The translations under genes were made by a program, and so were the position numbers. DNA of 64,000 nt from a virus, in IMG/VR virus record IMGVR_UViG_3300032291_001597, positions 68,625-132,624 of that record; one strand, given 5' to 3'. Positions 2,952-38,692 of the stretch are shown here, one piece after another. The notes beneath the pieces are model-generated. The model searched no databases, was not told the DNA's origin, and saw only the letters and a program-made list of their open reading frames with translations. How positions within the stretch are numbered: the first letter of the stretch is position 1; the number at the start of each line of letters is the position of its first letter.

Positions 2952-2960
2952 AATAGAACT

Positions 2961-3104: not shown

Positions 3105-3105
3105 A

Positions 3106-3273
3106 ATGGGAGAAGTATTTTTTGTTCTAGTTATTGGACTAGCAGTTGTTGCCTCGATTACTTGGCTGCTCGATGGCTACAAGAAAGAACTAAGAGACCA
3201 ACAGAATAAGAGAGATGTATCCCCTATGCTGGGAGTCGTCTTACCGAACAAGAAGGACAAGAAAGATGAATAG
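3106..3273 (+). CDS. Small single-TM protein
   Basis: SD AAGGAG before ATG 3106; N-terminal TM helix and basic tail. Confidence 0.7.
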   Translation: MGEVFFVLVIGLAVVASITWLLDGYKKELRDQQNKRDVSPMLGVVLPNKKDKKDE

Positions 3274-3442
3274 TTGGATTGTTAGATTGAAAGATGTAGT
3301 TTGGACTGCTGTGTTTGCTGTCGCGCTCGCGGTAGTGGCTATTCTCGTATCACTGGTTGTGCCGAGTGCTATTTCGCTAGTGCTCGCGCTTGGGTTAGCC
3401 TCAGTTTCACTCGCCCTACTATCTTGGAGAGTCGCTAGATAG
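3266..3442 (+). CDS. Small 2-TM membrane protein
   Basis: ATG 3266 overlaps the previous gene end; almost entirely hydrophobic. Confidence 0.75.
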   Translation: MNSWIVRLKDVVWTAVFAVALAVVAILVSLVVPSAISLVLALGLASVSLALLSWRVAR

Positions 3443-10731: not shown

Positions 10732-11229
10732 ATGTATAATCACTCACACGGCACCTCTGGAAAGCAGGAACTGGCAATGAAGTTGTCAGTTATTTTGGCT
10801 GACGTTGTTGCTTATCGCGCACTGGCTCACGGATTCCACTGGAACGTCAAAGGACCTGAGTTTATTCAGTTCCACGAGTTCTTTGCGACTCTTTATGAAG
10901 ATGCTGACTCAAGCATTGACCCGCTAGCGGAGAACATTCGCAAGTTGGGCTACGACGCTCCAGTTACTCTTGAAGACTTCGTAAGTCTGTCTTGCGTTCA
11001 GGGCAAAACTTCTACTGGTAGCCCTATGGAGATGTCTACCATTCTTTACGAAGTCAATCAGCACATCCGTGGCTGCTTGCTAGACGGTTTCCGTTTGGCA
11101 GACGAGTGTGACCAGCAGGGTATCGCTGATTTCCTAGCAGGTCGTATTGACATGCACGACAAGTGGATTTGGCAGTTGGGCACCACCATTGGAGCAGACG
11201 CCACCACTATTCAAACTCTGATTCAGTAG
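10732..11229 (+). CDS. dps: Dps/ferritin-like DNA-protecting protein
   Basis: HGFHWNVKGPEFIQFHEFF...IDPLAENIRKLG with ferroxidase H/H/D/E residues. Confidence 0.92.
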   Translation: MYNHSHGTSGKQELAMKLSVILADVVAYRALAHGFHWNVKGPEFIQFHEFFATLYEDADSSIDPLAENIRKLGYDAPVTLEDFVSLSCVQGKTSTGSPMEMSTILYEVNQHIRGCLLDGFRLADECDQQGIADFLAGRIDMHDKWIWQLGTTIGADATTIQTLIQ

Positions 11230-11236
11230 GAGCATC

Positions 11237-11821
11237 ATGGAACACCAAGAGCCTAGGGAGTTCATTAACGAGATGATTGAGTCTGGTAATGAACCAGCCA
11301 TTCCATCTATTTACACTGACAAGCCTACTTTCTCTATTGGTGACGAGATTCAGTCGCTAGTTGCTTCTGTCAACAGGACTATTCCTATTCGACGTCAGGT
11401 CCCTATTTACGATGCTCTAGCCGTTGCTGGGCGCTCGCTGGCTAGGACCGTTAGGGAATTCACTAACCCCAGCAAGCGTGCTTTCGCTGCTCTGCGCGAG
11501 GTCTCGGACTTTGTGAACACCGCTGTCAGTGGCAAACCTACTCGCATCGGCATCGAGCACTATGACTTGTTGCCTATCGGTCACCCACTCTCTACTAAAG
11601 AGGTAGAGATTTCTGCTCAGGATAGGCGAGAGTTTGAGGCAGATTGGTTTGCTGCTGACCCTAGAATTTCTGAAGAATACAGACCTGTTGTTGCTTCGGC
11701 TTATTTATCCGCACCAGATAGCGTAGAAAGAAAATACGCATTGGCTCACTTAGAGGCTTTAGGCTATGAAGACATTCCTATGGAAGTAGTTGTGGCATTA
11801 CTCGACGACAATGAAATCTAA
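11237..11821 (+). CDS. Hypothetical head-module protein
   Basis: SD AGGAG; between dps and the giant ORF; contains LVAS and VVAS motifs. Confidence 0.8.
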   Translation: MEHQEPREFINEMIESGNEPAIPSIYTDKPTFSIGDEIQSLVASVNRTIPIRRQVPIYDALAVAGRSLARTVREFTNPSKRAFAALREVSDFVNTAVSGKPTRIGIEHYDLLPIGHPLSTKEVEISAQDRREFEADWFAADPRISEEYRPVVASAYLSAPDSVERKYALAHLEALGYEDIPMEVVVALLDDNEI

Positions 11822-11824
11822 TAT

Positions 11825-14800
11825 ATGGCAATCAATCCGTACGCAGGAGAGAACTCGTTTCTTGCTCGTTCTGCAAGAGCGAAACGTCAGCGACGCGACC
11901 GCAAGGGTCGCTTTGCTTGGATGGGTGGCGCTGCCCGCTTCTTTCTAGCGGTCGAGGGTGTTGGCAAGGGTTTATCTATTCCAAGTCGCTTTGCTGGCTA
12001 TGACAAAAAATCTGACTCTTTTGATTTGGAACTTCAGGATGCTGAAGATATTGCCAAGTACGGAAAACTTGTCCGCGTTCCTGCCTCCAAGGTAGAGGGT
12101 CTCAAGGCTTATCTAAATCTTCCTAGCCTCGGCAAGCGAACCCCCACTAACGTTGAGAGCGACGTTCTTGTTAGCCCAGATGAAATAAAAAAGATTGATG
12201 CCCCTTCTGGTTGGAACCTTACTAAGACCGAAAATGGCGTCGAGTTTTATGAGTCTGAAGATGGTTGGATAGCAGAAAAGTATTCGAATTTAGATGCTTA
12301 CAAAAAGTCTGGAAAGTCCCCCAACAAGTTCAAGGGTTCTGGCGTAAACGGCGTTCCGCAATCTAGTCAGCCCGTTTATCACGTTTATCGCAATCCTAAG
12401 GCAGATGCCTTGATGTATGACGATTCTGTAAGGTTCGGAGACGTTTCTGTCGCTGCTCAGACTTGGGGCGACACTCAAGCCGTTGTCGAGAAGTTGGCTA
12501 GAAGAAAGTCCGACTCTTTCAAGTCTAATTTGTCTTCTCTGCGTGCTTTGCCTTCGGCTTGGACTGACTATGACCCCTCTAGTCGTGGCTTGTTTAGTGA
12601 CACTAAGTGGACGCTGTACAAGTATGAGTCTGGTAAGACCCCGACCCCCGCAAGAATTATGAAGATGTCTTCAATTCAGCGTAATAATTTATATAAGAAA
12701 CTTAGCGAAAACCTTCGCAATCCCGAAGCGACCGCTAATTGGTATAAAGATGACCGAACCCTGAGAACCTCTTTCCAAGTACGTCAGATGCCCGTGAATA
12801 GCGCAGATGCTAGGACGGCTTTGAACAAGGCTCGCGTTGAAGGCAAGAAAATACAGACTTTTGATGGGACCAGTAAGTTGGACCCGAAGGAAGACGTTCT
12901 AGAACTTAGTTACTACAAGACAGATGGCAGTGAACCGATTGCTTACTTCCAAGACTGGGAAGATTTAGAGGATTGGATTGAGGAAGAACGCTTTTCCGCT
13001 AAGGAAAAACTTAAAAAAGAGCAAGAAGCCGCTAAAAATCTAGAGCCTATGCCCAGAAGGGCTATGGAACTCCCAGATAGAAGCGATAGCGACATAATTC
13101 AGGACTTGGAGCCTGTTTCTACGCCTGCTATCTCTAAATCTTCTTTCTTCAAGACTGAAAATTCAGATTTTGAAGGCGTTGCCAGTGAAAAAGCAGATAA
13201 TCCTCGCTCTAGTAAATACATTGACGGTCCAGATGTTGTAAACGAGATAATGAATGAGGCTGCCAAGGTTGCTTTTGAGCAGGGCAGGTTCCCGATTCCT
13301 AGAAAAGGAGGTATCTCCACCTCCGCAGACGGCAAGTTTTTGGCTCCCGACGTCAAGATTGCGTTACAACGCCAATACAAGCGTGTTTTTGACTATTTGA
13401 AGGAGTCAAATCCAGACTTTATGGCGAACTATGACACTTTTGATAAGTTTTGGGCTGATGTAGATAAAAATAGCGTTAGTACGTCTACTCCTTTTGGCGA
13501 TGGACCAGAAAGTGAGTTCCGTCAGACTGTAAATAAGGCATACGCTAAAGAAATACTTGGGCTAGATGAAGACGGATTCATTGAAGTTTATCGAAACTCG
13601 ATTCGTGGTGGTAGTAGAGAAGGTCAGTCTGAAGTAGACGCGGCCGCAGGATACTCGTCGCTCGACAAAAATATGGCTTGGGACTACCAAAGCCAAGCCA
13701 CTGGAGATGGCCCGTTCTCTGGACGTTACTCAATCAAGGTAAAGCCTGAAGAGTATGGCGGAATGATTGGTCATAGCGGTGGTTTGGATGAATTTGGCGT
13801 AGTTCTAGGTAAAAACGTGACCAGTATCGATGGTCGCATAGAAAAGCACGGAAAATTAGAGACTTTACCGATTTTAGATGGAGTAACTTTCGGTGCTAGG
13901 GGCACTGGCGGCGGCCCATACAGATTTTTCAATGAAGGTTTTAGGTTTATTAAGCCAGCGGGCGAGTTTGATTACACAAGTTTTGACGACCTTATTGCCC
14001 GCGCTGGTGGAAAAGACAAAGTTAGAGCCAAGATTTCTGAATTCTGGCCTAATACCACTTTTGACAGAGTAGAAAAAGATTCTTTTGGTTTGAATGGCAG
14101 TTCTTTCGAGAAATACATAACAAAACTTCCTAACGGCAAGGCTATTTTTAATCCAGCATCCTTGACTTTGACCGAGTCTGGTTTCGGCGCTGAAGGTATT
14201 GACCAGAGGGGTGACCGAATGGACAACGTTCTAAAGGGAGCGTTGGCTTTCCAAGAATTAACTGGTCAAAAAATTATTGAGTGGCGTCGCGGTGGGAATC
14301 CATTTACCGATAAGAAGGCTTCTACAGCCCCAGAGACGACTGCAACTACCGAGAGGGCAGGAATTAGAGACCTATCTGGTTTCAAGCCCACAGGAGGTCC
14401 TCTAGGGTCTAATGAAGGTGGCACCTACGAAGATGCTAACGGCAACAAAATCTATGTCAAGAAGCCGAGAACAAAACTTCACGGAGAGAACGAAGTTCTT
14501 GCTTCGATGCTTTATGAACGCTTAGGTGTCAACACAGCGAAAATTCGTTTTGGACGTTTAGAAGATGGCACTGAGGTAACTTACTCAGAGTGGATTGACT
14601 CTAAGAAAGATTTGCGACAAAGGCTGAGCGACCCAGAGTATGTCCAGAAGATTCAAGAAGGCTTCGGTGTGGATGCTTGGCTTGCCAACTGGGACGTCGC
14701 TGGTGGCGCGTTAGACAACATCGTCACTGACAATAACGGTGACCCTGTTCGCGTTGACCCAGGTGGTGCTCTTTGGTTCCGCGCTCGCGGTGAAGCGAAG

Positions 14801-17800
14801 GGTGATGCTTTCGGCGAAAAGGTTGGAGAACTAGACACTCTTACTGACGGAAGCAATCCTCAGTCGAAGTTAGTTTTTGGAAGTATGACTAACGACGAGA
14901 AGCGCGACGCTGTCTCGGACCTTATAAATATTTCTCCTGACGAAATCGAGAGACTAGTAAATCAAAATATCTCTGACCGTGGCGTTGCCCAGAAAATGTC
15001 AGAGACTCTTATTGCTAGAAGAAAGAACGCTCTAGATAGATTTGGTATATCTGATTCAGTTCCTTTGGCTACCCCTAGACAAGCACCTTTGTTTGGTCCG
15101 AGAAGAGAGCCGAGACATCGCAAGCGTAGAATCAGTGGATACAAATACTTAGTTGACCGCCGTGGCGTCCACTACCCAAGCAAGCCTCTAAGTGCTCAGG
15201 ACTATTCTGACCTTAGGGCAGGTAGAGCGATGCCTAAGCATCTGCCTTTTGCTTTTGCTCCTACTAAAAATGGAAACGTTCACTACCTAGATAGCAACGG
15301 CAAACTCCACTGGGGGCAGTACGGCGCTGCTGGCGCTTTGCTACGTCGCAAGAACCCTGAAGGTGACTACGAGTATCTGATGATTCAGAGAGGTAGAACT
15401 TCTACTGGACCTGGTAGGTGGTCATCGCCCGGCGGAGCACACGACAGTTTTGACGATTCTCAGAACCCAGAAATTACGGCGAAGCGAGAATTGCAAGAGG
15501 AAGTCGGGTTGAACCTCGAAGACAGAATTCCTTCTTTTGTTTTGAGAAAAGAAGACGCCCCCGACTGGGCCTACAACATGATTGTTTATGACGTTGAGTT
15601 TGGAGAGTTTGACAGAATTGCGTTGGAGCGCGACAAAAAAGGCAGGTTAGTTGGAGATGCCATCGACGCTACTTGGCTAGACATTGATGAAATCAGATAC
15701 ATGAAAGACCGCGGGATGCTTCACGATGGCTTCTCTTCTGACTTGATAGAACAAATCAACGAAGACAACGTCGGGGCTGGAACGATTGAGTTGATTTCTC
15801 CTATTCGTTATGCAAGAAGTAGAGTTCCTCAAGATTTGGGCGTTGAGTTAGTTCCAGCAACTATGGACAACAACAGAGTAAAAGCGCCTTCTAAGCCTTT
15901 TACTGGTTCTGTAGAGCGCGAGTTGGACGGGCTTACTAAGCAGGAAGCCATCGAAAAACTTAGAGGTATGGAAATATCTTTCATCGACTTCGAAACCAAC
16001 GGTATCGACGACTTCGATGGTGACTTGAATGGAAACAGACCAGTTCAGGTAGGTATAGTAAAAGTCAAAGACGGCAAAGTCATAGACAGACTAAACGTTT
16101 ATATGAATCCAGGTGCTCCGCTTGGAGAGTGGTCTAGTAAAAACTTGCAGAGAGATGTAGTTGCCCCTGATGGCAGTAGAACTCCCACTTTAGTTACTGA
16201 CGCATGGTTGAAGAAACAAATTAGCCAAGATGATGCTCTAAAGCAGATAACTGATTTTATGGGCGAGAACCCTATCGTTGGCGGTCAAAACGTTTTGTTT
16301 GACTTAGAGATTCTTGACCGAATGGCTGGCAACGCTGGTTCCGATTACAAGGTTTCTGGAACTGTTGATTCAATGACTTTGGCTGAATATTTATTGCCTA
16401 GATACGACTCGACTAAGGGAGTGGACGGACCTAAAAAGAAGAACGCCGACGGCACTTTTACTCCAAGTTATAGTTTGGGCACAATCACTCAGTTCCTAGG
16501 ATTTGAACCAACTAAATGGCACAGCGCAGACGGCGACGCCGAAGACTCGGCTTCTATGCTTTCTAAGATGCTCGAGCGAGCCGAGAATGACGACTCGATT
16601 GGTAATGACGCTTTCAACTCGGATTTGAATACAGAACGTTATCGCGATGGACTAGAGAAATATAAAGCCGCCACTGACCCAGCCAGTCCTTCTACTATAA
16701 AGCAGAACGAGGGTTTGGAAAAGATTTTGGCTAAGTACCCAGCCTCTCCAGAAAAAACAGAAGCACTTAGAGCAGACGTAGGGATTGCCACTAGAGGTGG
16801 CGCTACTGAAATTATGCAGGAGTATGTAGAGGCTGAAGAGGCAAAGAGAAGGCGCTACGATAACGACCCAGAACTAGACCAGATTAAGAGGGAAGTGTTT
16901 GGCTTGGCTGTAGGTCTGCCGACTGACACCAATGACTCGTCTAATCCTTATCTGCAGGGTCCTATACGTGACTTAGGTATTGAACTCTTTCCTAACCTAA
17001 GCCCATCAGAGAGACCAGAACTAGTTCAGGCAACACCCGAGTGGAAAGAACTGAATAAAAAAGTCACGGCTGCTGGCGCTGTACTAGGCAAAAAAGTCAG
17101 GGATGCTGTAACTGCCGAGCACAAAGAAAACTACGGAACTGACCCGTATCAAGAACTCGAGTCGTTAGATAAAAAAGTTTTAGATGCTAAAGACTTTTAC
17201 TATAAGAAACTAAAAAACTCTAAAGCAATCTTTGCTAGATGGCGTAGTGGCTGGTTGGCTAGAAATCGCAATAACGTTGAAACCGTGTCTGCCCAACTGC
17301 TTGCTGAAATGAATAGAAACGAAACACCAAACGACACTAATGCATTGGGACGTTCACCTGAAATTTATGATGAACTACTAAACATCAAGGCTAGTTCTGC
17401 CAATGACCAAGAGGCGTTAGCCAAAATTTTTGAAGTTTTTGTTCAGAGCAAGGTCTCTGATGAAAAAATATTTCTTTCGCTAAGGCAGGGGGCTAGAAGT
17501 GGAGGTATTAGACCTGGAACCCCAGACCACAACGATTGGCTGGCTCTTTCTGAGGTCTCTATGGCTAGGAACAAACTGGATGGACTAAAAACAAAGCAGT
17601 CAGATTTGGCAACTAGGGTATCGACTTTACAGGCTATAGAGACTAGAAGACTACTGAGCGCGTTGGGCGTGGAGTTCAATCACGGTGTCCAGATAGAAGC
17701 CCAGTTCGGAAGACCCGGTCAGGTTTTGGCTACTTTCAATCCAGCCACTGAAAAGTGGGAAAAAACATTTTCTCCACTGGATGAAGATAGACAAGAGATG

Positions 17801-18595: not shown

Positions 18596-18603
18596 GGAAA
18601 ATA

Positions 18604-18942
18604 ATGAATGAAATCGCTTATTACAGCATCACTTTGAAAGACGGTAGTGAACTCTACTGGACTAAATCATTTGGGCTAAACGTCTTCGTAAACTACTTGG
18701 AAAATAAGGAGTTAGACGAAACTAGCGACGCTTTTCAGTTGGCGCTTGATGTCGAGGTCTTTATGACATCTGGTGGGGACTCTTTTTCATTCAAGTATCT
18801 TGACGCTAGTATAAAGAAAGACATAAAAGACCCCGTAGCAGTGAAATTAGCAATTCTAAAGTTTTACCCTGACGCAGTGTTTTCTAGCACCGCGCCTAAC
18901 ACAGATGGTTTCACTAAAAAATCAGGAAACGTAGTCAACTAA
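18604..18942 (+). CDS. Small hypothetical protein directly after giant 1 (possible partner or immunity)
   Basis: SD-like AGGGA; 8 nt after the giant's stop codon. Confidence 0.75.
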   Translation: MNEIAYYSITLKDGSELYWTKSFGLNVFVNYLENKELDETSDAFQLALDVEVFMTSGGDSFSFKYLDASIKKDIKDPVAVKLAILKFYPDAVFSSTAPNTDGFTKKSGNVVN

Positions 18943-18973
18943 AGGCAAGCAGTCAATAGCAATACAATAAAGT

Positions 18974-18982
18974 TGCTATACT
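18974..18982 (+). promoter_or_regulatory. Extended -10 promoter of giant 2
   Basis: TGcTATACT, followed by SD AGGAG at ~19020 and ATG 19035. Confidence 0.55.
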
Positions 18983-19034
18983 GTTTTTTATACAGATTGA
19001 CGCTGACTGTAGTCGTTTTAGGAGAAATTTTCAT

Positions 19035-31000: not shown

Positions 31001-32219
31001 AATCAACGGCGAGTTGCAGAAGTTCAATAATGGCGAAGAATCCGACTTGTTTAAGAAGCCTGTGGCTAATCGTGACCCTAATATGCCAGACGTGTCACCA
31101 GAAATGATTGACAGATATCTAAGTGCCCCCGGTGTCTTTAAGCGTTTTGGTGGATTTGCCAGAGTCACCGAAGCAGACATTGAAGTCTTAGAAAGAAACG
31201 ACCCGACTGGAGAGTTCGGTAGATTTAGGGATTATGACGCTGATGCTCTAAGAGAGTTAATAAAACAAGAAGCAGCCTCTATTCCTTTCGATACCACTAA
31301 ATTTGACGCTTCTACTATTCGTAAATTTAGAGAAGCATACGAAACCAGAAAGCGTAAGCAGATTGCCAACTATGTGACGCGAGTAAACGGTAGGGCACAA
31401 GCATTTATAAGCATTATTAACGGTAACAGAGACCCCGAAAAGAGGGCTAAAGAACTAGACGCTTTTAGATACGCTGAAAACAGAATTGTGGACAGAATGT
31501 CTAGAGCAAAACTGGGCTACAACATTAGTTTTGACGCTCTTAAGCAAGTTCTAACTGCCCCAGACCCAGCAGAAAGAAGATTTAAAAACCAGTTCGAAAC
31601 CAGAACTACTAGAGGGCACGACGCACACTATTCTGACCCACTAGGAATGAGCAGAAGAGGACCAGAACTTGAGTTTGGTAACGTTCCCATAGATACTGAC
31701 TCCAAAAATAGACCTAAGTACGGTTTCCCATTAAATAATGGAGTGAATGGCATTGGAGAGGTCACCGACTTTGATGGCCCAGAGGACGTTCTAGGTTTTA
31801 GAAAAGTCTCCTCCGAGTTTGCTAGAGACTTAGATAAAAACCTAAACCGCGCTATGGACAATAGCACCGCGTCTCACTACGGTGAAATTACTGTCGTGTT
31901 TAAGGACGAAGTAAAGTCTAGGACCACCCTAACTGCTTATGATTCTCTAGGCGCTAGCATATTGTCCGCTCCTATGGACAATATAACTAAAGAGAGCCTG
32001 TGGGCTGCTGGTATTAGAGATAACTTCCTTATGGTAGATAGCAACGGTAAAGTTAGTAGTGGTTACAGCAGTTACGCTGAAATTCAAATGCACGGTCTTT
32101 TGGGGCTAGATGATGTTGAGGTTATTTATGCCCCAAACGCCACTTCTCAGGAAAGATTAGAAAGCCTTTTACGTACCCTTGGTATAGGAATAGAAGTCAA
32201 AATTAAGGGTAGGAGATAG
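19035..32219 (+). CDS. Giant polyvalent protein 2 (4394 aa): QRRDRYGRW tag, SH3/KOW-like barrels, GNAT-like, kinase-like, degenerate NUDIX, small alpha/beta repeats, C-terminal DUF3626-like domain
   Basis: QSSGLGGALY..HS (~22400-22520); DALFDNRDV..GNI..RCDMGG (~25400-26120); FKNQFET..RPKYG..HYGE..RTTLTAYDS..YAEIQMHG (~31500-32219). Confidence 0.85.
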   Translation: MTDAFGLSHPDDSPIVAASNAYSGKNSAAARRLRVKLQRRDRYGRWVEMGGVLSFKVRVNGEVQTKIGRAVGGSQRDGYIRVVIPEGQGIRPGTYHISEKVSRTAKAMLGEEYLEEKGVKVDANGNSIGEVLDRDIEDVKDLFREDTSDLDRALLDGVLSEDEKSALEKSRKTAPTHKSYNVVDESGKRVDEDEVGGLDFTDIADSRNWRLRKNRDGSIKSGKYLSPDKKLRAEIYQTESGKTYMKVSYPSDKNLIENEEVGALTEDDLLGDSRNLSTGYGRSLDSVDKTVKGAKAVLPAPDKEEQKKIDAERKAMEDLVKASPVRESYAMPELYMAEATDDELFARLKSLEERDTNNDSLFIKDGEIRNLRAERESVIIDDIRRELKGRGLAIPKSVKPAKRPLKKPAKPSEQPDNWLSAPSLRVGDQIVDADGKRKKIASITPEPEGDRALIKFADGSERMYEGEELVQIASKSLIKEDVPVEPVAPKFPDANRSNVYDNAAKALGITPEELKADERIFDAVEHTSDLIDKRQEDALPEFMGEDGTTRLYSSLTDAIAKHYALTKNGELYEPEPLGRDNKDLLEKARAGGATINPLSRRNRLQGWAVAVRGNNDEIIDTVALEDGIGDLLMNDYVNRNIDKFGGNKYLGLWHDKKNHELVFDVSEVFKETDVEAATKAGQDRNQKAIFNLRTWDEIETGGTGDNGRAREERESARLGGDKPRGVEEPEPARADSADEERTPVSDSGVDGARAEDEQGLSDNLRELPSYLRDNLLELLPTGIYESDKKSIGENIDRLENSLDKGSSAITQALKALSRSLAKAEKKQNEKDADNREVADLLDETIMQVSLAHNYAKSITVAPSAPGQPEGKLTQPGSASSRRISPSSDGSEFIAVPRMARDSGGGTDDSISDLSDIVDDTDPEIVRQLRAMDLAVDYDSLSDSQKNTYNNLKTFQEKAVRALTISAVSDNMEKYKRQRTIALSVTRALNGFITAINTGNPREDYISSGSLENRTRNLTFIEDSITTKTGRDTRTTIINKAKAIFVARDGGVYEISIDSHNADIVARQLDASGNYVTLRSGTERAAFLNQYGGSGDGFHSEDDGYLDPYSPNSDKIRPVTPGMIRTDDSVQSSGLGGALYAFLGYLHDQNGRGFMHSAHLLGPGNMASKLVNKNLKYHNPSQREKALTVINPNSDIIQSMSDAGWFGRSYNAFTTLTLYPGSHSSLDIAGKMTFQNFLKPLDGSLGGGNNIGPLWNMDKSIHELADLLHDSISMESPDVADYFKEYFDGNREDWELISIQGTLLDTAFLGGATKEDALTKLRNLKKVTDSLLSPDARIPARGNVKKIATGLSEALNQLIPAIDARSFDDSTRVERPKDMDFKSFSKVFADPFESKNGYEPFRTDFIMPEGVPPIDSSDSYMPKRNYPSEWINSDVPAPSSWSDEGGTLELQSEERLVGALRKSIQNKSDLAVMDFDGVDRNIQARSIYDALRRKSLDHNMILAKLYDEVLGGNENQTRLEEFRRTAPSLKSEAAELIESVGIVVPPADFEFGGMYDEDAHKLSAGSAVYDDEVTGEGFGLQLTKLSENENLRTPNYATLDRKPYVSVDEADNWSRLGTSDNPRIIARNFSRSGLSQGLVSALKRNSSYVNLQFANGTERRISILAIRDALQHQGVDTNALLKSAGATRVREYIRSVNVADNGERVTNTFKVGEKPGFIRTNTYANPEAESNGRATVLIDDPNATSYDSLGSGSKVIGLTRLDTTADPLRPYAVVWFGKKDAVALSRFNVEDHGSRVVERYETRAEADAVLGDLARDDMFFVDQIMQDSAILPPLKVTKRLPSTLPMTERLLGSRTISHQIGIIDPRVVHFSDNSGVPGEGGKDDLFRDDNGNILATVTANEDGQFQAKVDSLTETFTDRQIAQRWAGEELARKLEANLNLADSSKVPAERPKRVLSGYEESETLKTDLTLSTYGVLYYNEGSVVRAIKVTGQRAKASPYRRAEPDYRLLSVSVTDPSNPTVSKFNLGISRTGRSEWYLTASGGEVAVGEPMNVSKVFTSPEAAIKQARKLSEDRLGKDMVPDFGPIGYKSLPDEVIPSLPNAKDLDEVLTHASTVIDSTDAVELSSLSGVNGAKKIQLPDGRIFKRKGGGITSGPAGIRNAENKRRVDAEVFAHAVYNFAGIQATNAQKGKNGSAPVVMDPWVDVDGSKNWMKITERSGSGTQIGEDVQRGFVLDALFDNRDVATNSGNIIVGTDGRARRCDMGGAGLFKAGGDRGVRATTFQADRGESSVDFYMGNYMDWSRSTVYKGFSEEKRKQYAIDHLAPLTDEALDKLGALIENEEDRKKTLDTLKARRDGILRKLGIDIEEERRKRAGSSAAEPESEDVVEVPDTSEETIDEPLLLEEPVRVPVPSGPKRVSMADRLPLKRTPDGVYYPERHSDLFPYTQKIRNGEIVPEELPFAFKQPIPVIDAGGFYMSTPPSYVDANGIYRTSAFGTFNTFIRRKNADGSYSILGFGRGIGDREVLGGLIEDRGAYSHDADAEHLRQVLDSKTHGLEGKTPVTHEVELAPGYKSRVSIYDLSEDEARDLNLANERLLPTDDGGKYRNREWMPLNDFLERISDPEWIANPDNLQGLRGIFSMPTMPHPRSKPLGVPRSEDEDIEVGTIEWSRTSEVLGKSYTVSKLTNGTYSINDSSGKTIAEVRPAKGLYKFEAYILPNNIGTPGNPGARLAFFDNDRQATAWAGDLATEMIGGDKNLFNELGVGEVDLGPISPVVHKGGHLDKATEDQIATLTRLVNTKEMVGATRAQYREHLRKPNLVKGEVGSLIRQLSRTPDRSDDVTASERDGESVTPSKPTDGGIVPPKGPSGDEDMTTSPFIRKKASELAPGDKIVNAKGEYIGKVAITYVDKENGKVTVAMIDKTGASVNLEEALMDDSYLVDPRVPAAVAVPEGKDKEEGAGGAGGGDTTALPGGLRAFRARSSYIIDQVKAAYPAAVQLPNGDLVIAERQYTERSRLRRTFKYQVVVHRLPNERFVAYAREVLLKPDGSIDPDYTPRAGRVTPQTHSPLALLNDIPPLLSGDGPEQGILKRNPRQWLSNSGDLQNEVVNPATGQLLPETLSPRVGEKFIGDTGIKTTGDGVKDALIGYIAELVDRGVLDRDIISRMTSGRQTALNKEQVIDLVERIEANRNFPGVNAIPYVARDNASIVRIGDKVRHYSPSGRIKEGVVMDRIQLVINRKPSGQYEYTDKVWVQFPGRAGWTEITTRNLEILKRKDGSDPLPAIDAETKRPISPIPPAAPETDRTPIPTRDGSGTPEASDEFLNGLDEFGDAHVDAMNGGHSKYGLPEGYKASVRAGGGMQVTQASGYTSGLFAPNPDGTVSVYFTYPGFVGINKSKTVATKTEAMRLVAEAMKIDAGLIPAPTNVHKKGEAVSVDDVYDYTGAEDSSGVVHEITRTGLSTTFSNPATGEKHPISVSNNLDGTWKVTGISGIGETLYSPSSRQEAEAVAISALSRGDSAPSAPAVDESSTPAPDFDAALASLSRDPVFNDKHVELMYREDAPEEFKIPIGYKATLSAAGEGLKLEHIDRPSDNLNATAFRKDDGSWEIRVNRPAGRMVTIPPIYRNRTASDPIDAIKMLNSDLKNAVKGAPHDGMSLEDRMVDLTNNDRFLEDMHTYLFTDTSLPTELRNRYKLPEGYSAVRRTSSGSYGSVFITKKDADGNTDPDSPIAEISGVIDGKRTITVWANDSDRMASRPVFEGRTALDPEHAIAMVSSDLRSAIQGRPPRDIKQYWDLGLSPAPAPASPEAPAVPSTPASPAVPSAPSLPEGYTVRGGEGDAPTIVRSNDMSKPYMRIEKSTDENGNEIFKGKVWNTGKDALDDLSPAEEKNFTDREKAMKWATRRAEDPSRIGKPDEPETKWDTDADGREILTVTGIEGSEDDNNPAALITDVPGVGTLAAVYNKKSGIGGTPYEVRTFRSRDEAKEWANGLINGELQKFNNGEESDLFKKPVANRDPNMPDVSPEMIDRYLSAPGVFKRFGGFARVTEADIEVLERNDPTGEFGRFRDYDADALRELIKQEAASIPFDTTKFDASTIRKFREAYETRKRKQIANYVTRVNGRAQAFISIINGNRDPEKRAKELDAFRYAENRIVDRMSRAKLGYNISFDALKQVLTAPDPAERRFKNQFETRTTRGHDAHYSDPLGMSRRGPELEFGNVPIDTDSKNRPKYGFPLNNGVNGIGEVTDFDGPEDVLGFRKVSSEFARDLDKNLNRAMDNSTASHYGEITVVFKDEVKSRTTLTAYDSLGASILSAPMDNITKESLWAAGIRDNFLMVDSNGKVSSGYSSYAEIQMHGLLGLDDVEVIYAPNATSQERLESLLRTLGIGIEVKIKGRR

Positions 32220-32224
32220 AGGAC

Positions 32225-32503
32225 ATGGATAACTTGGAGATTTATACTCTAAAAGACGATACTGACCTATCGATTGTTTATGATTTTTCGATTGGCGAAA
32301 TTTATTACGTCCACTTGGAAGATAAGAAAGACCCCGAGACTAAGTATCAGATAGTGCCGCTTGAATTTATTTTTCAAAAAATGCCTGGCGACTGGGAAAT
32401 AATTAATGAAGGTAAACTAGAAATCAAACAAATAAGCCAAGAACAAGCAGAAGAGCAGGGCCTAGACGTGAGATTTTTTATAAAAGATGAGGTGCAAGGC
32501 TAA
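32225..32503 (+). CDS. Small acidic hypothetical protein after giant 2 (possible partner or immunity)
   Basis: 5 nt after the giant's stop; AGGA SD-like. Confidence 0.75.
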   Translation: MDNLEIYTLKDDTDLSIVYDFSIGEIYYVHLEDKKDPETKYQIVPLEFIFQKMPGDWEIINEGKLEIKQISQEQAEEQGLDVRFFIKDEVQG

Positions 32504-33195
32504 TGCCAGAAAACAAAAACTTCACTTTAGATTCTGCAACACTGGGGACCCTATTCAAGACAGTTGGCGTTATCACCGCTCAGGGCAAGGAAAACTATAA
32601 CAGCACCATTCTAGGCGCTTATTACGACAGAGCCGAGGAAACTAGAGGTCTATACGTAGTTATGCCAAACGGTGAAATCAAGTATTTTGATGTCGAGGAC
32701 GTAAACATCAAGTCCGAGGGAACCGACGAACTAATTGGTTTTTCTTTAGATGAGACTGAGTACATTCTAAGAACTTTGATGGAAGATGATGGCGAGTGGA
32801 TTTCTTCCTACAAAATGCCAATTCCAGAACTCATTATAGAAAAAAAGATTATTGGCGAGTCTTTGCCAGCAATCAATAAACTTACTGGCTTTGAGTTACC
32901 TGAGTTGCCTCCGTTCTTTGAGGCGTTCTTTGTCTATAAGTCAGAGACTTCGGACTACTTGATGTCTATTAATTACCTAACAAACTATCGCAACTACGTA
33001 CGTTCAAACGCCCGATGGGTGTTTGAGGACATGTCTCAGGACTATTACGAAGACCTAGAGGTCTTTGAAGTGGATAAAGAACGGGCTAAGGCTTTTCTGT
33101 ATTTATATGACCGTCAAAAGGGTTATTTAAAGTTCTCAGAAGTCAAGACTTACTTATCGACCCCGTCTACATCTACTATAATCAATAATGACTAA
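32503..33195 (+). CDS. Acidic hypothetical protein
   Basis: TAATG coupling with the previous gene. Confidence 0.8.
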   Translation: MPENKNFTLDSATLGTLFKTVGVITAQGKENYNSTILGAYYDRAEETRGLYVVMPNGEIKYFDVEDVNIKSEGTDELIGFSLDETEYILRTLMEDDGEWISSYKMPIPELIIEKKIIGESLPAINKLTGFELPELPPFFEAFFVYKSETSDYLMSINYLTNYRNYVRSNARWVFEDMSQDYYEDLEVFEVDKERAKAFLYLYDRQKGYLKFSEVKTYLSTPSTSTIINND

Positions 33196-33218
33196 TAACC
33201 TTTGGTAAGGAACGGGTA

Positions 33219-36200
33219 ATGTCCCATTTTCTGGGTAGACACAACTCTTTATTGCTTTTTAGCAATGAGACGCACTCCGTGGTTATTGATGAAACCGTCG
33301 GGCTTGTAGTTGAAATCGGGGAGACCCCGTCGCTAATCGCGTCCGCTGACTGGATTTTGTCAGAGGAAACTTACGATGAGGCATCGATTGTTGACTTGGC
33401 TGAAGTGGCTTTGAGCCGCGTAAAAATTGATTCTTTAACGGCTTCGGCACGTTTATACACTATACCTTCAGGCGTACAGTCAGAGGCAAAAAAGGCTTTG
33501 GAATGGCGTAAGGAAGAGAAGCGCGGTGGCACCCCTGTAGGTCTGAACACTGCACGCACTCTTGCTAAGGGCGGACAGATTGGTATCGAGAAGGTTCGCC
33601 ACATTGCCAAGTATTTCCCTCGTCACGAAGTTGACAAAAAGGGTAAGGGCTGGAGACCGGGCGAGGACAACTTCCCTAGCAACGGGCGTATCGCTTGGGC
33701 GCTTTGGGGTGGTGACGCTGGTTGGCGTTGGGCTAAGGCTATCGTCGAGCGCGAAGACAAGAAGAGTCTTAGGGCAGATGCTTACCCTATGCCTGAATTA
33801 GAAGACTTTAAAGTTTCTTATGAATTAGATGAGTCAGTTGCTCCAGAGTTTATGGCTCGCGTTCGACTAGATGGCTCTGGAATTGACCGTATCTACAAAG
33901 TAGATATTGATGGACACGTTTTTGCTTGGGACGACGGAACTTGGGACGACCTAGGTCACGCCGATGGAGACATTTGGACTTACGACCGTGCTCTAGACGA
34001 TGCCTACGACACCGTTCCTAAGGAACACATTCTTATTGACCCAGAGTCTGCTCTAATTATTTGCGCCAAGTTACAGGCTAAGCCTTTCGACAAGGTAACC
34101 ATTTTAGAAATCGATGAAGAAGAGGCGATGCTTGCTGCTGGCGCTGTTGCTGGCGAAGACTGGGACTTTATTGACTACGCAGTGACTGCTGCTGGCGAGG
34201 ACCCTATTGGCGCTACGGTTCAGAATCCTAACAACTTGCCTGCCGATGGAACCGCTGGATACACTCCAGCGGACCGTAGTAAGAACGCAGCCAAGCAGGT
34301 CAGAGATGCTCGCGGTCTATTCGCTGCCCAAGGAAACAAGGTTTCGGTAGTTGGTAGACCAAATGGTGTCATCACCGCAATCAACGCTGCCAACAAGACT
34401 GTTACCGTAAAGCACGACGACGGAACTAGTTCTACAGTTCCAGCAACCGATACCCGCAAGTTGGAAGAGCCTAAGGCTCAGGTCACAGGTCGCTCTGACT
34501 TTGAGCCAGACCCTAATGAAATTGCTCCGATGGATACGAGGGGAATCCTCGGAGAGCCTAGAACTCCAATCAATCAGCCTAAGGCTCACTTGCCTGGAAC
34601 TCTTCCGCCTCTGACCAGAAACGACTTGGCTTCTATTTTGGCTGACTATCCAGCGTGGGTAGCAAGTCAGAGAAACTCGTTCAAGCCTCTTGGAACTGGA
34701 ACTGGAACTGGAACTGGAACTGGAACTGGAACTGGAACTGGAACTGGAACTGGAACTGGAATCAACACGGGCGGGGCACCTACTGGAACTCCTACTTCAA
34801 ACCTAAGAAGTGGTGAGAAGCCTTACTTCAACCCTAAAACCCCTTACGACACTGCTCCTCGCTCACGTCTTGACACAGGTGAGACTGGCAAGTTTTTGGA
34901 AAATCTTACTGGCATCAAACAAAAGCCTGGTGATTACGACGCCTACAAGCACCCTCTTCTAAAAGACTGGCTAAACAAGACCGTCAAGAAGGACGGAAAA
35001 ACTTACACCCCAAACGCTCTTTGGTATCAGCCAATTACCTCTGCTGCTGAAGCAGAAGTGAAAGAGGCAGTAAAAGAAGAGACCGCTGAAGAGCGTCCAG
35101 TTGGAGAGAAAAAAGTATCTGACGTTCAGCCTTTGTATTTAGCAATTGTTGCGCCAGATGACCCTCGCGCGGTTTTGGATTTGGTAAGCATTGTTCCAGC
35201 AGGCGTCACCTCTAACCAGCCTATGACTTATGTTCGTAAAGATAAGAAGTGGGTTCGTGACGCTAAATACTTGGACGACCTACGTTCGGCTACCCCACCG
35301 CCAGTAGTCCCTATGGACAACGAAACTCTTAACGATGTCTTGACCCAGATTGATGGCTTGGTTGCTAGTGCCTATAGCCAAGCCTTGATGGTTTTGTTTG
35401 GACCCAACCCCGCTGTTATGGAAGCCTTTGAAAATGACTATTTAGAGGAAATTTTCCCTGATTTCGAATCACTTTTAGCAGCGGGTGGGTTGGACCGAAA
35501 CAGGGGAGGCGCTGAGGCTCTACGACGTTATTGGACCACTGGTAAGGGAGCGACAAAGATTCGCTGGGGGACTCCGGGCGACTGGAAGCGCTGCGTTCGT
35601 TACTTAGGAAAATATCTTGGTGTCCGCTCTAAGGGCTATTGCCAACTCCGTCACAAGGAAGCCACTGGTGTTTACACTGGCTCGCGTCTAAATCCAGGTA
35701 ATGAAAACTCTTCTCAGGAATTCTTGATGGAAGAAGTTTGGGGCGAGAACATTGGCGAGCCTACAAAGATTACCGAAAAAGATTTGCTTATGCCTCTGCC
35801 AGAAATTATGGGAGAGAAGGATGACATCTATGACCACCACTGGGAGCCAGAAGAAGAAATTGTTGCTGGTCTAAAGACGCTCAATGATTTCTCAGACGAA
35901 GAGTTCGAAGTTTTGGTTGCTGGTGCTAGACCGCCTAGTGGCTACAACATTGACCGCAACCGTAGAAGTGCTGAAAAGTTACGTCGCTACTGGACCAAGG
36001 GTAGAGGCGCTGCCAAGATTCGTTGGAACACTGGTGGCGACTGGACCAGATGTGTCCGCTATTTGTCTAAGTACATCGGACCTCGCGCTAGAGGTTACTG
36101 CGCCTTGCGTCACAAAGAAGTCACTGGTCTTTGGACTGGGGATAAGGCCCACCTAAAGATGTATGGCGGTCGTACCCGTGGCGGTAGAAACGTATTTAGC

Positions 36201-38549
36201 AATGAAGTAATCAATAGCGAAGAAAAAGTTTTGGAACTTGTGAACCTACAAGCAACTGCTAACGCTCTGAAAGAGAGAGTTGGCCTTATTGCGGGTGGAG
36301 CGGAGTCTGGCTCTAGATTCAGCATTCCTCTAGTCATACCAGAAGACCACGAGTCTGGCGATGGTCGTAAGTTCAAGAAGGGCGCTATTAGTTGGCGCGA
36401 ACTTCCACTACCTCTTATGTGGCAAATTCAGACTGCTGACGGTCACCAAGGTTCTGTAGTTGTCGGTCGAATCGACAGTATGGAAAGAACTGAAAAAGGT
36501 ATCGGAAACTGCTACGGAGTATTCGACACTGGGTCTCACGCTAGAGAAGTAGAGAGACTAATTCGCAATGGTTTCGTTCGTGGAGTGTCTGCCGACATGG
36601 ACCAATTTGAGGCAACCGAACACAGCGAAAAGGAAGATGAAGACACCGCTTCCAAAAACTCAAAGTCCGTGGGCAAGGGTAAAATTATTATAGATAAGGC
36701 TCGCATTATGGGCATAACTATTGTTGCCAAGCCTGCCTTCCAAGAGTGCAAGATTCTTTTGCTAAACGAAGCAGAAGATACCACCGATAATCAACAGGAG
36801 GAAAACGTGATTCCACAAGACGGAATCTACGCGGACGACGCTGATTTCAACGATGCCGAAAGCCTAGTGGCTTGCGGTTTTGTTGCAGGCGCTATCCCCG
36901 TATCACCGCCTGCTAATTGGTTCAAAAACCCAAAACTGACCAAAGCGACGCCTCTCACTGTTGATGACACTGGTAGGGTCTATGGTCACATTGCTTCATG
37001 GGACACGAACCACATTGGTATGGCTTATGGCACCCGTCCGCCACGTAGCAAGAGTGGATATGCTTACTTCCACACTGGCGTGGTCAGGACTGAAGATGGT
37101 GCTGACATTCCAGTAGGACAACTAACTCTTGCTGGAGGACACGCTTCGCTAGAAGCAAGCGCAATGGAAGCAGTCAAGCACTATGACGACACCGCTTCGT
37201 CTGTGGCAGACGTTCACGCTGGAGAGGACTCATACGGCATTTGGGTTGCTGGTGCTCTCCGCCCTGGAACTCAGCCTGAGCAGATTCGCGCTCTCCGTGC
37301 GTCCGCACCTTCGGGTGACTGGCGTCCAATTCGTGGCTCGCTAGAACTTGTTGCCGTATGTCAGGTCAATGTTCCAGGCTTCCCGATTGCCCGTGCTCGC
37401 GTTGCGTCTGGTGCTGTTATGGCATTGGTTGCGGCAGGTGCTGCTACTTTGGCAAGGATGAAGGGTAGCCCTGTAGACGAGTTATCTGACCGTCTAAACG
37501 CTATCGAGCAACTAGTTGCTGGGCAGAAGAATGAAGAGTTGTCGGCTAAGGTCGCAGAACTTTCTGCTCGCGTAAAGTCCGAAGAAGAGTTCCAGTATGA
37601 CGACCAGTTCGCTTTTATTTCTCGCAAAACGAGAGAGAAGTTGGCTGAAGAAGGTAAGGCACTGCCAGACGGCTCTTACCCGATTCGTAACGTCGCTGAC
37701 TTGAAGAACGCTATTCAGGCTTACGGTCGCGCTAAGAACAAGTCGGCTGCTAGAAAGCACATCGAAAAGCGTGCTCGCGCTCTAAAAAAGGGTGACCTCA
37801 TTCCGCAAGAGTGGAGCACCGCTTCTATCGACGAAGAGGCTTTGGTCTCTAGCGCAGATGACTTGAGAGCAAGAATTGCCAGTGCTCAGGGCCGCTTGGG
37901 AAAAGCATTAGCGGTTGAGTCTCCTAAACAGGGAGATGAGTTTATTCCTTACACCGACGAACAGGGCGAAGTTCTACCAGAAGTGGTAGATGGAGTCCCA
38001 GAAAACGCTCCTACTGTAAAGAGCGGAAGTCGCGCTAAAGGCGTATACACTCCCCAGACTCAACCGCGTGACGAGGCTGGTAAGTTCCGCAAGGTTCTTG
38101 CTCGCCTAAAGCAAGACCTAGGTGTTGCTGGTCTTCAAAAAGTTGTGGAAGAAGCCAAGTATATTGACAAACTACATGAAGTAGGTAACTACGCTGAGGC
38201 CGCTGGCGCAGGCGTCAAGTTACTGGACATTGTGGACCGTCTAGATGCTGGTGCCCTAAACAAAATTTCGTTGGAGAACGTCCGTTCTTCAGCGGCAGAA
38301 CTTGGAAAAGTTATTGCTAACCTACCTCTGGGATTTAACAACCAGAATGAAAAGGTTCGTTACAGCGACTTGCCACCTGCACTTCGCGATTTGATGGATT
38401 CAATGGTCGAACGTGTAGAAGCCAAGATTGGTAAGAAAGACGCGGATATCGCTACTAAGGCTCTTATGAGTTTTAAGAGCGGTTCTGACGTTTTCAGTCA
38501 AGGTGAGATTTCGGCAGAAATGTCAAAACTCCTGAGATTGCTTACTTAA
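33219..38549 (+). CDS. Capsid maturation protease polyprotein (1776 aa) with many accessory head domains including a DUF6582-like domain
   Basis: Prohead protease motifs GHQGSVVVGRI and GVSAD (~36310-36760); second conserved domain GRVYGH..HYDDT..GEDSYGIWVAG..SGDWR..PGFP; ALPDGSYPIRNVADLKNAIQAYGR; immediately upstream of the capsid gene. Confidence 0.85.
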   Translation: MSHFLGRHNSLLLFSNETHSVVIDETVGLVVEIGETPSLIASADWILSEETYDEASIVDLAEVALSRVKIDSLTASARLYTIPSGVQSEAKKALEWRKEEKRGGTPVGLNTARTLAKGGQIGIEKVRHIAKYFPRHEVDKKGKGWRPGEDNFPSNGRIAWALWGGDAGWRWAKAIVEREDKKSLRADAYPMPELEDFKVSYELDESVAPEFMARVRLDGSGIDRIYKVDIDGHVFAWDDGTWDDLGHADGDIWTYDRALDDAYDTVPKEHILIDPESALIICAKLQAKPFDKVTILEIDEEEAMLAAGAVAGEDWDFIDYAVTAAGEDPIGATVQNPNNLPADGTAGYTPADRSKNAAKQVRDARGLFAAQGNKVSVVGRPNGVITAINAANKTVTVKHDDGTSSTVPATDTRKLEEPKAQVTGRSDFEPDPNEIAPMDTRGILGEPRTPINQPKAHLPGTLPPLTRNDLASILADYPAWVASQRNSFKPLGTGTGTGTGTGTGTGTGTGTGTGINTGGAPTGTPTSNLRSGEKPYFNPKTPYDTAPRSRLDTGETGKFLENLTGIKQKPGDYDAYKHPLLKDWLNKTVKKDGKTYTPNALWYQPITSAAEAEVKEAVKEETAEERPVGEKKVSDVQPLYLAIVAPDDPRAVLDLVSIVPAGVTSNQPMTYVRKDKKWVRDAKYLDDLRSATPPPVVPMDNETLNDVLTQIDGLVASAYSQALMVLFGPNPAVMEAFENDYLEEIFPDFESLLAAGGLDRNRGGAEALRRYWTTGKGATKIRWGTPGDWKRCVRYLGKYLGVRSKGYCQLRHKEATGVYTGSRLNPGNENSSQEFLMEEVWGENIGEPTKITEKDLLMPLPEIMGEKDDIYDHHWEPEEEIVAGLKTLNDFSDEEFEVLVAGARPPSGYNIDRNRRSAEKLRRYWTKGRGAAKIRWNTGGDWTRCVRYLSKYIGPRARGYCALRHKEVTGLWTGDKAHLKMYGGRTRGGRNVFSNEVINSEEKVLELVNLQATANALKERVGLIAGGAESGSRFSIPLVIPEDHESGDGRKFKKGAISWRELPLPLMWQIQTADGHQGSVVVGRIDSMERTEKGIGNCYGVFDTGSHAREVERLIRNGFVRGVSADMDQFEATEHSEKEDEDTASKNSKSVGKGKIIIDKARIMGITIVAKPAFQECKILLLNEAEDTTDNQQEENVIPQDGIYADDADFNDAESLVACGFVAGAIPVSPPANWFKNPKLTKATPLTVDDTGRVYGHIASWDTNHIGMAYGTRPPRSKSGYAYFHTGVVRTEDGADIPVGQLTLAGGHASLEASAMEAVKHYDDTASSVADVHAGEDSYGIWVAGALRPGTQPEQIRALRASAPSGDWRPIRGSLELVAVCQVNVPGFPIARARVASGAVMALVAAGAATLARMKGSPVDELSDRLNAIEQLVAGQKNEELSAKVAELSARVKSEEEFQYDDQFAFISRKTREKLAEEGKALPDGSYPIRNVADLKNAIQAYGRAKNKSAARKHIEKRARALKKGDLIPQEWSTASIDEEALVSSADDLRARIASAQGRLGKALAVESPKQGDEFIPYTDEQGEVLPEVVDGVPENAPTVKSGSRAKGVYTPQTQPRDEAGKFRKVLARLKQDLGVAGLQKVVEEAKYIDKLHEVGNYAEAAGAGVKLLDIVDRLDAGALNKISLENVRSSAAELGKVIANLPLGFNNQNEKVRYSDLPPALRDLMDSMVERVEAKIGKKDADIATKALMSFKSGSDVFSQGEISAEMSKLLRLLT
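34692..34760 (+). repeat. Perfect in-frame hexamer repeat (GGAACT)x11.5 encoding (Gly-Thr)11-Gly
   Basis: Counted directly: 69 nt. Confidence 0.97.
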
Positions 38550-38573: not shown

Positions 38574-38692
38574 TAAAATAAAGACTAGGTGGAGTGCCTC
38601 CACGCCCAGTTGCGTGCGTAGTCCCTTTTCACCTTGTACCGAAAGCGAATGAGTGAAATCCGCTCATTTACAACTGTCCTTAGGAGGCACAG
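38574..38692 (+). promoter_or_regulatory. -10 box (TAAAAT 38574-38579) and structured 5' leader of the capsid gene
   Basis: Helices GACTA/TAGTC, GTGGAG/CTCCAC, AATGAGTG/CGCTCATT and an SD-occluding CTGTCCT/AGGcACAG. Confidence 0.55.

Follow-up and report, generated by a model that had tools for sequence, protein, structure and literature searches.

What do two giant genes contribute to a phage that encodes them between its portal and its capsid protein? We addressed this question in a 64,000-nucleotide stretch (the window; positions 68,625 to 132,624 of IMG/VR record IMGVR_UViG_3300032291_001597), which is the structural half of the 132.6-kb genome of an uncultured, actinobacteria-type phage. 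The two giants, G1 and G2, begin with the same domain of about 140 residues, hereafter the tag, and the core of this domain recurs within G3, a protease/assembly protein. Because the giants begin with the same module as the capsid protease protein, they are probably loaded into the head and delivered. On balance, we think it probable that G1 and G2 are a tag-defined variant of the polyvalent proteins of phages, taken into the head by means of the tag, trimmed, and delivered to the host.

The tag domain and its family

An initial annotation of the window, made from its letters, had noticed one short tag in all three large proteins. The tag is real and far beyond chance: the motif Q-x-R-D-x-x-G-[RKL]-[FW] has four copies in the six-frame translation of the whole 132.6-kb genome, and all four lie in these proteins, at residue 22 of G1, residue 38 of G2, and residues 360 and 1615 of G3. 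It forms the core of the larger domain, in which a strongly basic helix (G-G-N-S-x-A-A-R-x-x-R-A-x-L-Q-R-R-D-R-x-G-R-W-x-E-M-G-G) is followed by a small beta domain. In G2, the tag comes after a leader of 14 residues that ends in I-V-A-A. The domain has no match in Pfam.

The nearest named relative of the window phage is the Actinomycetia phage DSL-LC01, whose capsid protein is 68% identical. The capsid proteins of the ~190-kb Microbacterium phages Zooman, Big4, A3Wally, Cece, and Pumpernickel and the Arthrobacter phages Mimi, Racecar, and Atuin are 48–54% identical, and the Gordonia phages Forza and GMA2 are more distant relatives. A megablast search with 24 kb against cultured phages returned no match. 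The named relatives share a common layout: the portal gene is followed by one or two giants, then come a small conserved protein and the giant protease protein, and after these the capsid gene. The tag domain is the sole part kept between G1/G2 and the giants of A3Wally, Cece, Pumpernickel, and DSL-LC01, and a hidden Markov model (HMM) of the tag also matches the protease giants of all four relatives (E 9e-9 to 2e-5), at one conserved place as in G3. The same tag occurs in cultured Microbacterium and Arthrobacter phages.

The family extends well beyond these phages. A scan of IMG/VR yielded 272 loci that encode the tag domain, and some of the 79 loci that were fetched carry two or three tagged open reading frames (ORFs) in tandem. 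A profile built from 44 diverse copies and searched against 1.84 billion proteins at E <= 1e-3 recovered at least 657 representatives (protein clusters), 117 of them at E <= 1e-30. The 147 proteins newly retrieved from the best 150 hits have a median length of 2294 aa, 16 of them are at least 4000 aa long, and the longest reaches 7004 aa. That protein (P0125, with two kinase-like domains) and P0009 (5432 aa) are both larger than G2. The tag starts within the first 60 residues in 80 of 139 representatives and at residues 150–260 in another 57; in the latter, it sits near residue 200 behind a domain homologous to o194, the small protein encoded ahead of G1. Position in the genome is equally regular. 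In 62 of 64 related loci, the end of a portal homolog lies less than 4 kb ahead of the first tag, and wherever the sequence reaches far enough, the tagged giants are succeeded by a G3 homolog. The tag domain, and its sharing with the protease/assembly protein, appear to be undescribed.

G3 had been counted with G1 and G2 as tagged cargo, and here the evidence points elsewhere. The protein is conserved end to end in relatives (35–57% identity) and unites in one polypeptide modules that GMA2 and Forza encode as separate genes; its strongest matches are to head-maturation-protease PHROGs, with weak matches, below the cut-offs, to Pfam S78 (E 0.015) and TIGR01543 (E 0.04). We therefore regard G3 as protease/assembly machinery that also carries the tag. 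Coordinates of all features are given in Table 1.

Table 1. Genes and protein features of the portal–capsid region, with positions in the window.
Feature	Residues	Position	Strand	Evidence or remark
Large terminase		4993-6390	+	Upstream of portal
Portal		8960-10723	+	phrog_776, E 9e-102; upstream boundary of cassette
Dps/ferritin-like		10732-11229	+	Pfam Ferritin, E 8.5e-17; without tag
o194, stand-alone pro-domain copy		11237-11821	+	39% identity to DSL-LC01 giant residues 22-181
G1, tagged giant, 2256 aa		11825-18595	+	ORF
G1 tag domain	3-131	11831-12217	+	Tag-domain HMM, E 2.8e-31
G1 protein-kinase-like domain	847-1088	14363-15088	+	AlphaFold2 (AF2) pLDDT 80-94
G1 NUDIX	1169-1290	15329-15694	+	Pfam E 1.4e-8, above curated cut-off
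G1 DEDDh 3'-5' exonuclease	1386-1577	15980-16555	+	Pfam RNase_T, E 4e-5
G1 C-terminal HExxH domain	1931-2256	17615-18592	+	Conserved ~330-residue domain
o112, small ORF between G1 and G2		18604-18942	+	ORF
G2, tagged giant, 4394 aa		19035-32219	+	ORF
G2 tag domain	14-149	19074-19481	+	Tag-domain HMM, E 2e-46; 52% identity to G1 tag
G2 block	522-732	20598-21230	+	40-51% identity to distant giants P0007, P0008
G2 block, duplicated module with I-R-D-A-L-Q	1460-1681	23412-24077	+	In 71/167 proteins searched
G2 kinase-like domain	2123-2380	25401-26174	+	Kinase-like HMM, E 1e-75
G2 block, helical bundles with KOW/EF-P-like and Tudor/SH3-like barrels	2781-3305	27375-28949	+	AF2 mean pLDDT 65
G2 DUF3626-like C-terminal region	4155-4364	31497-32126	+	Transitive sequence match
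o230, conserved small protein		32503-33195	+	Homologs Cece gp69, A3Wally gp86, Pumpernickel gp83
G3, protease/assembly protein, 1776 aa		33219-38549	+	Head-maturation-protease PHROGs, E to 4e-96
Tag core in G3	346-387	34254-34379	+	Tag-domain HMM, E 2e-4
Prohead protease region of G3	1039-1455	36333-37583	+	phrog_859, E 4e-96; phrog_18402, E 5e-60
Second, degenerate tag-like motif in G3	~1615	38061-38087	+	Motif scan; not conserved in DSL-LC01
Major capsid protein ORF		38653-40746	+	phrog_777, E 1e-77

Domains carried by the giants

Both giants are real, functional genes under purifying selection along their whole length. Against its ortholog in IMG/VR locus L007, G1 has a dN/dS (ratio of nonsynonymous to synonymous substitution rates) of 0.17, with no 250-codon window above 0.25; the corresponding value for G2 is 0.19, and over all such windows of both genes the range is 0.02–0.37. 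A 97%-identical protein of 4386 aa and four further close relatives of G2 all come from independent metagenomes. Along the giants, dS against L007, the closest relative, varies from 0.08 to 1.13, which suggests mosaic exchange or recent recombination of segments.

Several of the enzyme domains that had been read from motifs in the giants are borne out for G1 by profile searches. The NUDIX domain scores above the curated Pfam threshold, matches RenU in the PDB (E 5.5e-8), and keeps the helix R-E-L-Q-E-E-V-G-L, in which R-E-U-x-E-E-x-G-U is intact; further upstream the box is unusually spaced. The DEDDh exonuclease lies just above the Pfam RNase_T threshold (24.6 bits, cut-off 24) and matches phrog_192 (E 1.4e-22) and NCBIfam models of the PolC/DnaQ type (to E 4e-11), and its catalytic motifs D-x-E, D, and H-x4-D can be recognized by eye. 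The HExxH claim stands in part. Six G1-type orthologs have an invariant H-E-x-x-H and a later G-E in the conserved C-terminal domain, a candidate zincin peptidase on this motif evidence, but no family can be assigned: the domain has no match in the PDB, and the best score in an Atlas search was not above 0.86.

The two kinase-like domains are confirmed at the level of fold as members of the protein-kinase-like superfamily, on the strength of a structural model. A Foldseek search of the PDB with the AF2 model of the G1 domain gave 108 matches at E <= 1e-3, and all 50 among the matches listed are kinases or kinase complexes. The best is Helicobacter pylori CtkA (3akl; E 4e-7, target TM-score 0.54), followed by HipT and actin-fragmin kinase; an Atlas search gave LepB_N, PI3_PI4_kinase, and HipA_2 as leads only. 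The G2 domain is a paralog (BLAST of G1 832-1271 against G2 2111-2594, E 1e-16). Eleven sequences keep the motifs G-S-N-x-G-G, Y-V-K, N-E, D-A-W-L-x-N-W-D...D-N, and V-D-x-G-G, the equivalents in G1 and G2 of the Gly-rich loop, beta-3 Lys, helix-C Glu, D-x-x-x-x-N loop, and metal-binding Asp.

The same domain, 34–39% identical, is found inside proteins named ‘ADP-ribosyltransferase’ in ~90-kb phages of Proteobacteria (Pseudomonas, Yersinia, Escherichia, Aeromonas, and Morganella phages; for example L166, Pseudomonas phage Dolphis gp117), so that this module crosses host phyla. It is also present in Forza gp78 (E 9e-81). We considered G1 808-1091 as an ADP-ribosyltransferase (ART) on account of these record names and rejected it, as the domain folds as a kinase; Dolphis gp117 is a multi-domain protein of 1222 aa, so its label need not refer to the kinase-like domain.

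Two other domains named in the initial annotation belong to relatives and not to this phage. Neither Pfam nor PDB profiles match an ART in G1, G2, or their close orthologs. A Vis-like ART match in the PDB (E 1e-3) stems from the orthologous giants of loci L008, L011, L014, and L015, which have a classical R-S-E ART; at that alignment position G1 is unrelated and largely gapped, and its kinase-like domain starts where the stretch ends. GNAT domains are likewise absent from G1 and from nine G2-type sequences at E <= 1, and from the results with PDB profiles, and one G1-type relative carries a GNAT of the Acetyltransf_1 type (E 3e-7). An HD domain in G2 was dropped after a weak hint (E 0.15) gave a profile E-value of 1.5. 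In all, sequence and profile searches of the PDB with whole G1, G2, and G3 and with blocks A5, A6, A7, and A13 returned only NUDIX, DnaQ, and the Vis ART derived from relatives.

G2 is the more opaque of the two, having as a whole protein no match in Pfam, PHROG, or NCBIfam. The DUF3626-like domain claimed for it is supported only transitively. Its C-terminal region aligns with residues 245-393 of a tagged 466-aa protein of DSL-LC01 (26% identity, E 8e-10), of which residues 257-351 match Pfam DUF3626 (E 7e-10). Block 1460-1681 has no match in Pfam or PDB searches. For block 2781-3305, the model, a fold of moderate confidence, resembles EF-P domain I (VIA Z 8.5) and the Spt5 KOW domain (Z 8.2); Foldseek found nothing at E <= 1e-3, no enzyme fold was seen, and a weak Pfam match to PRC-barrel occurs in this region in six of nine orthologs. 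The pentapeptide [LI]-P-[EI]-G-Y recurs five times in G2, at residues 2084, 3346, 3567, 3694, and 3826. Each copy just precedes a new stretch, one of them directly before the kinase-like domain, and the copies may mark module joints.

Related genomes keep the N-terminal tag as the domain content behind it changes, a pattern that the initial annotation had proposed looking for. Pfam domains in 24 tagged giants include ADPrib_exo_Tox (E 3e-37), MPTase-PolyVal (E 2e-28; in two giants), ArdcN (also in two), UvrD helicase, RNase_T, NUDIX, PI3_PI4_kinase, CotH, DRAT, and Sigma70_r4, and Zeta toxin and GNAT are also among the variable modules of relatives. By sequence comparison, modules are thus shuffled behind a constant tag. 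G1 and G2 themselves have no Pfam match to the hallmark domains of polyvalent proteins (MPTase-PolyVal, ArdC-N, and the LPD families).

Are the modules there for their enzymatic activity? In 167 proteins searched, mostly tagged representatives, the most recurrent are block 1460-1681 (71 proteins), the barrel-rich block 2781-3305 (54), and the kinase-like domain (53). The first two are not recognizable enzymes, the second is predicted to fold into KOW, Tudor, and SH3-like barrels and helical bundles, and the tag is common to the assembly protein G3. All of this would suit giants that are packaged but mainly structural, forming an internal body, a scaffold, or a DNA-organizing mass that co-assembles by means of the tag, with enzyme modules that are secondary and no delivery of effectors. 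We judge this unlikely, because content behind the tag turns over fast among close relatives, which is unusual for structural cores, because intact-looking catalytic motifs are kept under purifying selection, and because relatives carry domains of toxin or anti-restriction type (ADPrib_exo_Tox, Zeta_toxin, and ArdcN).

Trimming, packaging, and delivery

The initial annotation had also proposed that two of the large proteins share protease sites with the capsid precursor. Counts of the motif [LIV]-x-A-[ASGC] do not depart from chance within G1 (8 observed, 7.8 expected) or G2 (16 observed, 16.9 expected), and in G3 the motif is about twofold enriched (21 observed, 9.4 expected; Poisson p 8e-4). 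Domain-by-domain processing of the giants is therefore unsupported, and what survives of the proposal is the enrichment in G3 and the conserved sites upstream of the tag and at the capsid junction. We regard it as very unlikely that the giants are polyproteins cut by the head protease at many such sites into separate enzymes. The excess of sites in G3 would agree with this, and the HExxH domain of G1 might serve as a peptidase in processing, the role that Iyer et al. (PMC5512222) put forward for MPTase domains. The chance-level counts within G1 and G2 speak against it, as does the sole examined linker site in G2 (V-T-A-S, residue 2840), which is kept in only some relatives; given this ambiguous conservation, we do not claim it as a cut site.

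Immediately ahead of the tag the picture is different. Of 101 representatives, 77 have a match to [LIVM][VTIAL]A[AGS] among the 20 residues ahead of the tag, vs 2.1% of random windows, and in G3 the sequence V-T-A-A-G stands at residue 322, 24 residues ahead of the tag core. The o194 and G1 genes look as if a single gene had been split: relatives have the o194-like domain joined to the front of the tag, and the o194/G1 gene boundary coincides exactly with the L-T-A-A of the fused proteins. In the capsid gene, a P-V-T-A-A-A island (39397-39408), kept as P-V-T-A-[AS]-A in ~70 of 77 related genes, closes a hypervariable acidic linker that follows a conserved N-terminal segment of 85 residues. The conserved capsid N-terminus (M-D-Q-I-K...) begins at a GTG in 31 of 36 related loci (37 rows with the window's own), and the GTG at 38692 is the probable start of the capsid gene, rather than 38653. 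The hydrophobic-x-Ala-Ala/Gly/Ser motif fits a trimming site that would leave the tag on the mature protein.

The gene order between portal and capsid is as the initial annotation described it (Dps and the three large ORFs), with three small ORFs, o194, o112, and o230, interspersed and all listed genes on the + strand. The multi-enzyme giants do lie in the head module, flanked by the terminase, portal, protease, and capsid genes; tail genes come after the capsid gene. In relatives, o230 always precedes the protease giant. No relatives of o112 were found by Pfam, PHROG, or relative-protein comparison, and a scan for promoters and terminators gave nothing informative. The Dps gene directly after the portal has a homolog in 38 of 79 related loci, which makes it a frequent passenger of the head module.

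Virion proteomics is available for GMA2, whose portal, capsid, and protease proteins are 39%, 42%, and 54% identical to those of the window phage. Mass spectrometry of purified virions detected the portal protein (orf9), the capsid protein (orf16), and orf10, the last with 29.4% peptide coverage (Dyson et al., 2015, Table S5; PMC4524720). In the orf10 protein, of 883 aa and encoded right after the portal, residues 126-150 hold I-T-A-A-G and, after it, a basic motif. Of the peptides reported, the first begins at residue 141, and by eye none of the six predicted tryptic peptides of residues 1-130 was reported. The Gordonia relatives (loci L005, GMA2, and L006, Forza) have other basic motifs after the same hydrophobic-x-A-A-G motif: V-R-T-x-x-G-x-x-K-Y-G-x-P-I-G in GMA2 orf10 and orf13 and in Forza gp80, and H-P-R-G-x-D-G-R-F in Forza gp78. 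Together with the Q-x-R-D-x-x-G-R-W of the window phage, this makes at least three basic motifs. We tentatively suggest, with rather more doubt than conviction, that the tag is a portable encapsidation signal of a lineage of siphoviruses with the HK97 fold, used alike by the protease/assembly protein and by cargo, and that it belongs to a set of at least three basic motifs, exchangeable for one another, that directly follow a hydrophobic-x-Ala-Ala-Gly trimming site.

The giants might instead stay out of the head, as late cytoplasmic enzymes or as toxins freed at lysis, in the manner of the ‘Trojan horse’ ADP-ribosyltransferases of freshwater actinophages, which Kavagutti et al. (2019; PMC6802176) proposed to act on eukaryotic grazers. 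Besides that grazer-directed precedent, the indirect nature of the case for packaging and the untagged Dps in the same block, which means that position alone is no proof of packaging, are in keeping with this account. It leaves unexplained why the giants and the head protease protein have a conserved N-terminal module in common, why the giants lie almost universally between portal and protease, and the GMA2 virion data; G1 and G2, moreover, have no ART by profile search. We give it little chance.

Packaging of a tag-defined variant of polyvalent proteins, trimmed and delivered to the host, remains the reading that we favour, and several observations weigh against it. G1 and G2 together comprise 6,650 residues, about 5,000 of which are without an assigned fold, and much of G2 appears non-enzymatic (barrels and helical bundles in the model) or is unassigned. 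The partner of the tag is not known; a complex prediction of the G2 tag (residues 14-155) with the N-terminal 90 residues of the capsid protein, both with alignments, scored 0.01 (mark 0.32) and speaks neither for nor against binding. The case for packaging is indirect, both for this phage and for any phage with this exact tag. The motif in GMA2 orf10 differs, and the protein has no detectable domain in common with G1 and G2, so GMA2 lends support by analogy of organization only. GMA2 virions also hold three peptides from residues 15-69 of the capsid N-terminal segment. This segment is therefore not simply removed and stays with the GMA2 virion, cut or uncut; the motif shared with the capsid protein need not be a cut site, and the analogy to capsid precursor cleavage is weakened.

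On the favoured reading, the giants would be produced late, alongside the head genes, and the tag module would serve as the address that brings them into the assembling procapsid, by a contact also used by G3, since G3 carries the core of the same module. The leader of G2, or the separate or fused pro-domain (o194 for G1), ends in the hydrophobic-x-Ala-Ala/Gly/Ser motif, where the head protease probably trims. The mature giants would remain with the DNA inside the head and pass into the host upon infection, so that their enzyme modules could act before any phage gene is expressed: the atypical protein kinase of both giants, the NUDIX, DEDDh, and candidate zinc peptidase domains of G1, and the DUF3626-like domain of G2. 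Behind the constant address, modules would be swapped between phages.

Should the tag prove to be a loading signal, it would mark several hundred protein clusters, many of more than 3,000 residues, as proteins that phages of actinobacteria inject on arrival, and these would constitute a large, mostly unannotated reservoir of host-takeover and anti-defence enzymes. A single address for assembly protease and cargo would be a simple way for scaffold-less HK97-type capsids to select their internal proteins. If the tag is indeed a portable encapsidation signal, as tentatively suggested above, it would also provide a sequence rule by which proteins delivered from the head could be recognized in actinobacteriophages, and a means of loading their capsids with proteins of choice.

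Comparison with known systems

The internal proteins of phage T4, and Alt, have a capsid targeting sequence that is cleaved by the gp21 prohead protease, and they travel with the DNA. This address, of ~10 residues, is a short N-terminal peptide removed by cleavage after L/I-x-E. The tag resembles it in function only, as an N-terminal address beside a candidate protease site. It is far longer (~140 residues), differs in sequence, and lies downstream of the candidate cut site, so that it would stay on the mature protein; the window phage, moreover, is of siphovirus type with an HK97-family protease.

Size need not stand in the way of delivery. The N4 virion RNA polymerase (3500 aa) and DarB of the P1 Dar system are packaged and injected, which means that giant size is no obstacle. 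Both are discussed by Iyer et al. (PMC5512222). Unlike them, G1 and G2 lack RNA polymerase, methyltransferase, and helicase domains, and the packaging determinants differ. In SPN3US and other phiKZ-like phages, the prohead protease processes many proteins of the head interior, and these are ejected (PMC7411985, PMC10052503), as we propose for the giants, but these phages are myoviruses with a different protease site, and their ejection bolus consists of many separate proteins rather than of giant mosaics with one tag.

The MuF polymorphic toxins (Jamet et al., 2017; PMC5576092), like SPP1 gp7 and Mu F, combine a constant N-terminal domain for head incorporation with a variable effector part, and here too the gene adjoins the portal gene. 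G1 and G2 differ in having no Pfam Phage_Mu_F match at E <= 10 and a payload of many modules over thousands of residues instead of one toxin domain; Forza and GMA2 encode a separate MuF-like protein besides.

The closest parallel is with polyvalent proteins, which have been described as giant, multi-domain, and predicted to be packaged in the head and injected (Iyer, Burroughs, Anand, de Souza, Aravind, 2017; PMC5512222). G1 and G2 likewise unite several unrelated effector-type domains in one polypeptide and are encoded among portal/terminase and late structural genes. The mix reported there (kinases, nucleases, NUDIX, peptidases, ARTs, helicases, and ArdC-type domains) is matched by the Pfam repertoire of the 24 tagged giants. 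In contrast, G1 and G2 match none of the Pfam families built from that work, and their kinase-like domain, which is similar to CtkA and HipT, retains the C-terminal lobe, unlike the truncated kinase clade described there. Their family is defined by the ~140-residue N-terminal tag, of which the searched passages of the paper make no mention. NUDIX and related domains have also been reported as fusions to head proteins (PMC9503650). To judge from their sequences, G1 and G2 are in keeping with the class of polyvalent proteins described for phages, and also with these NUDIX-type fusions.

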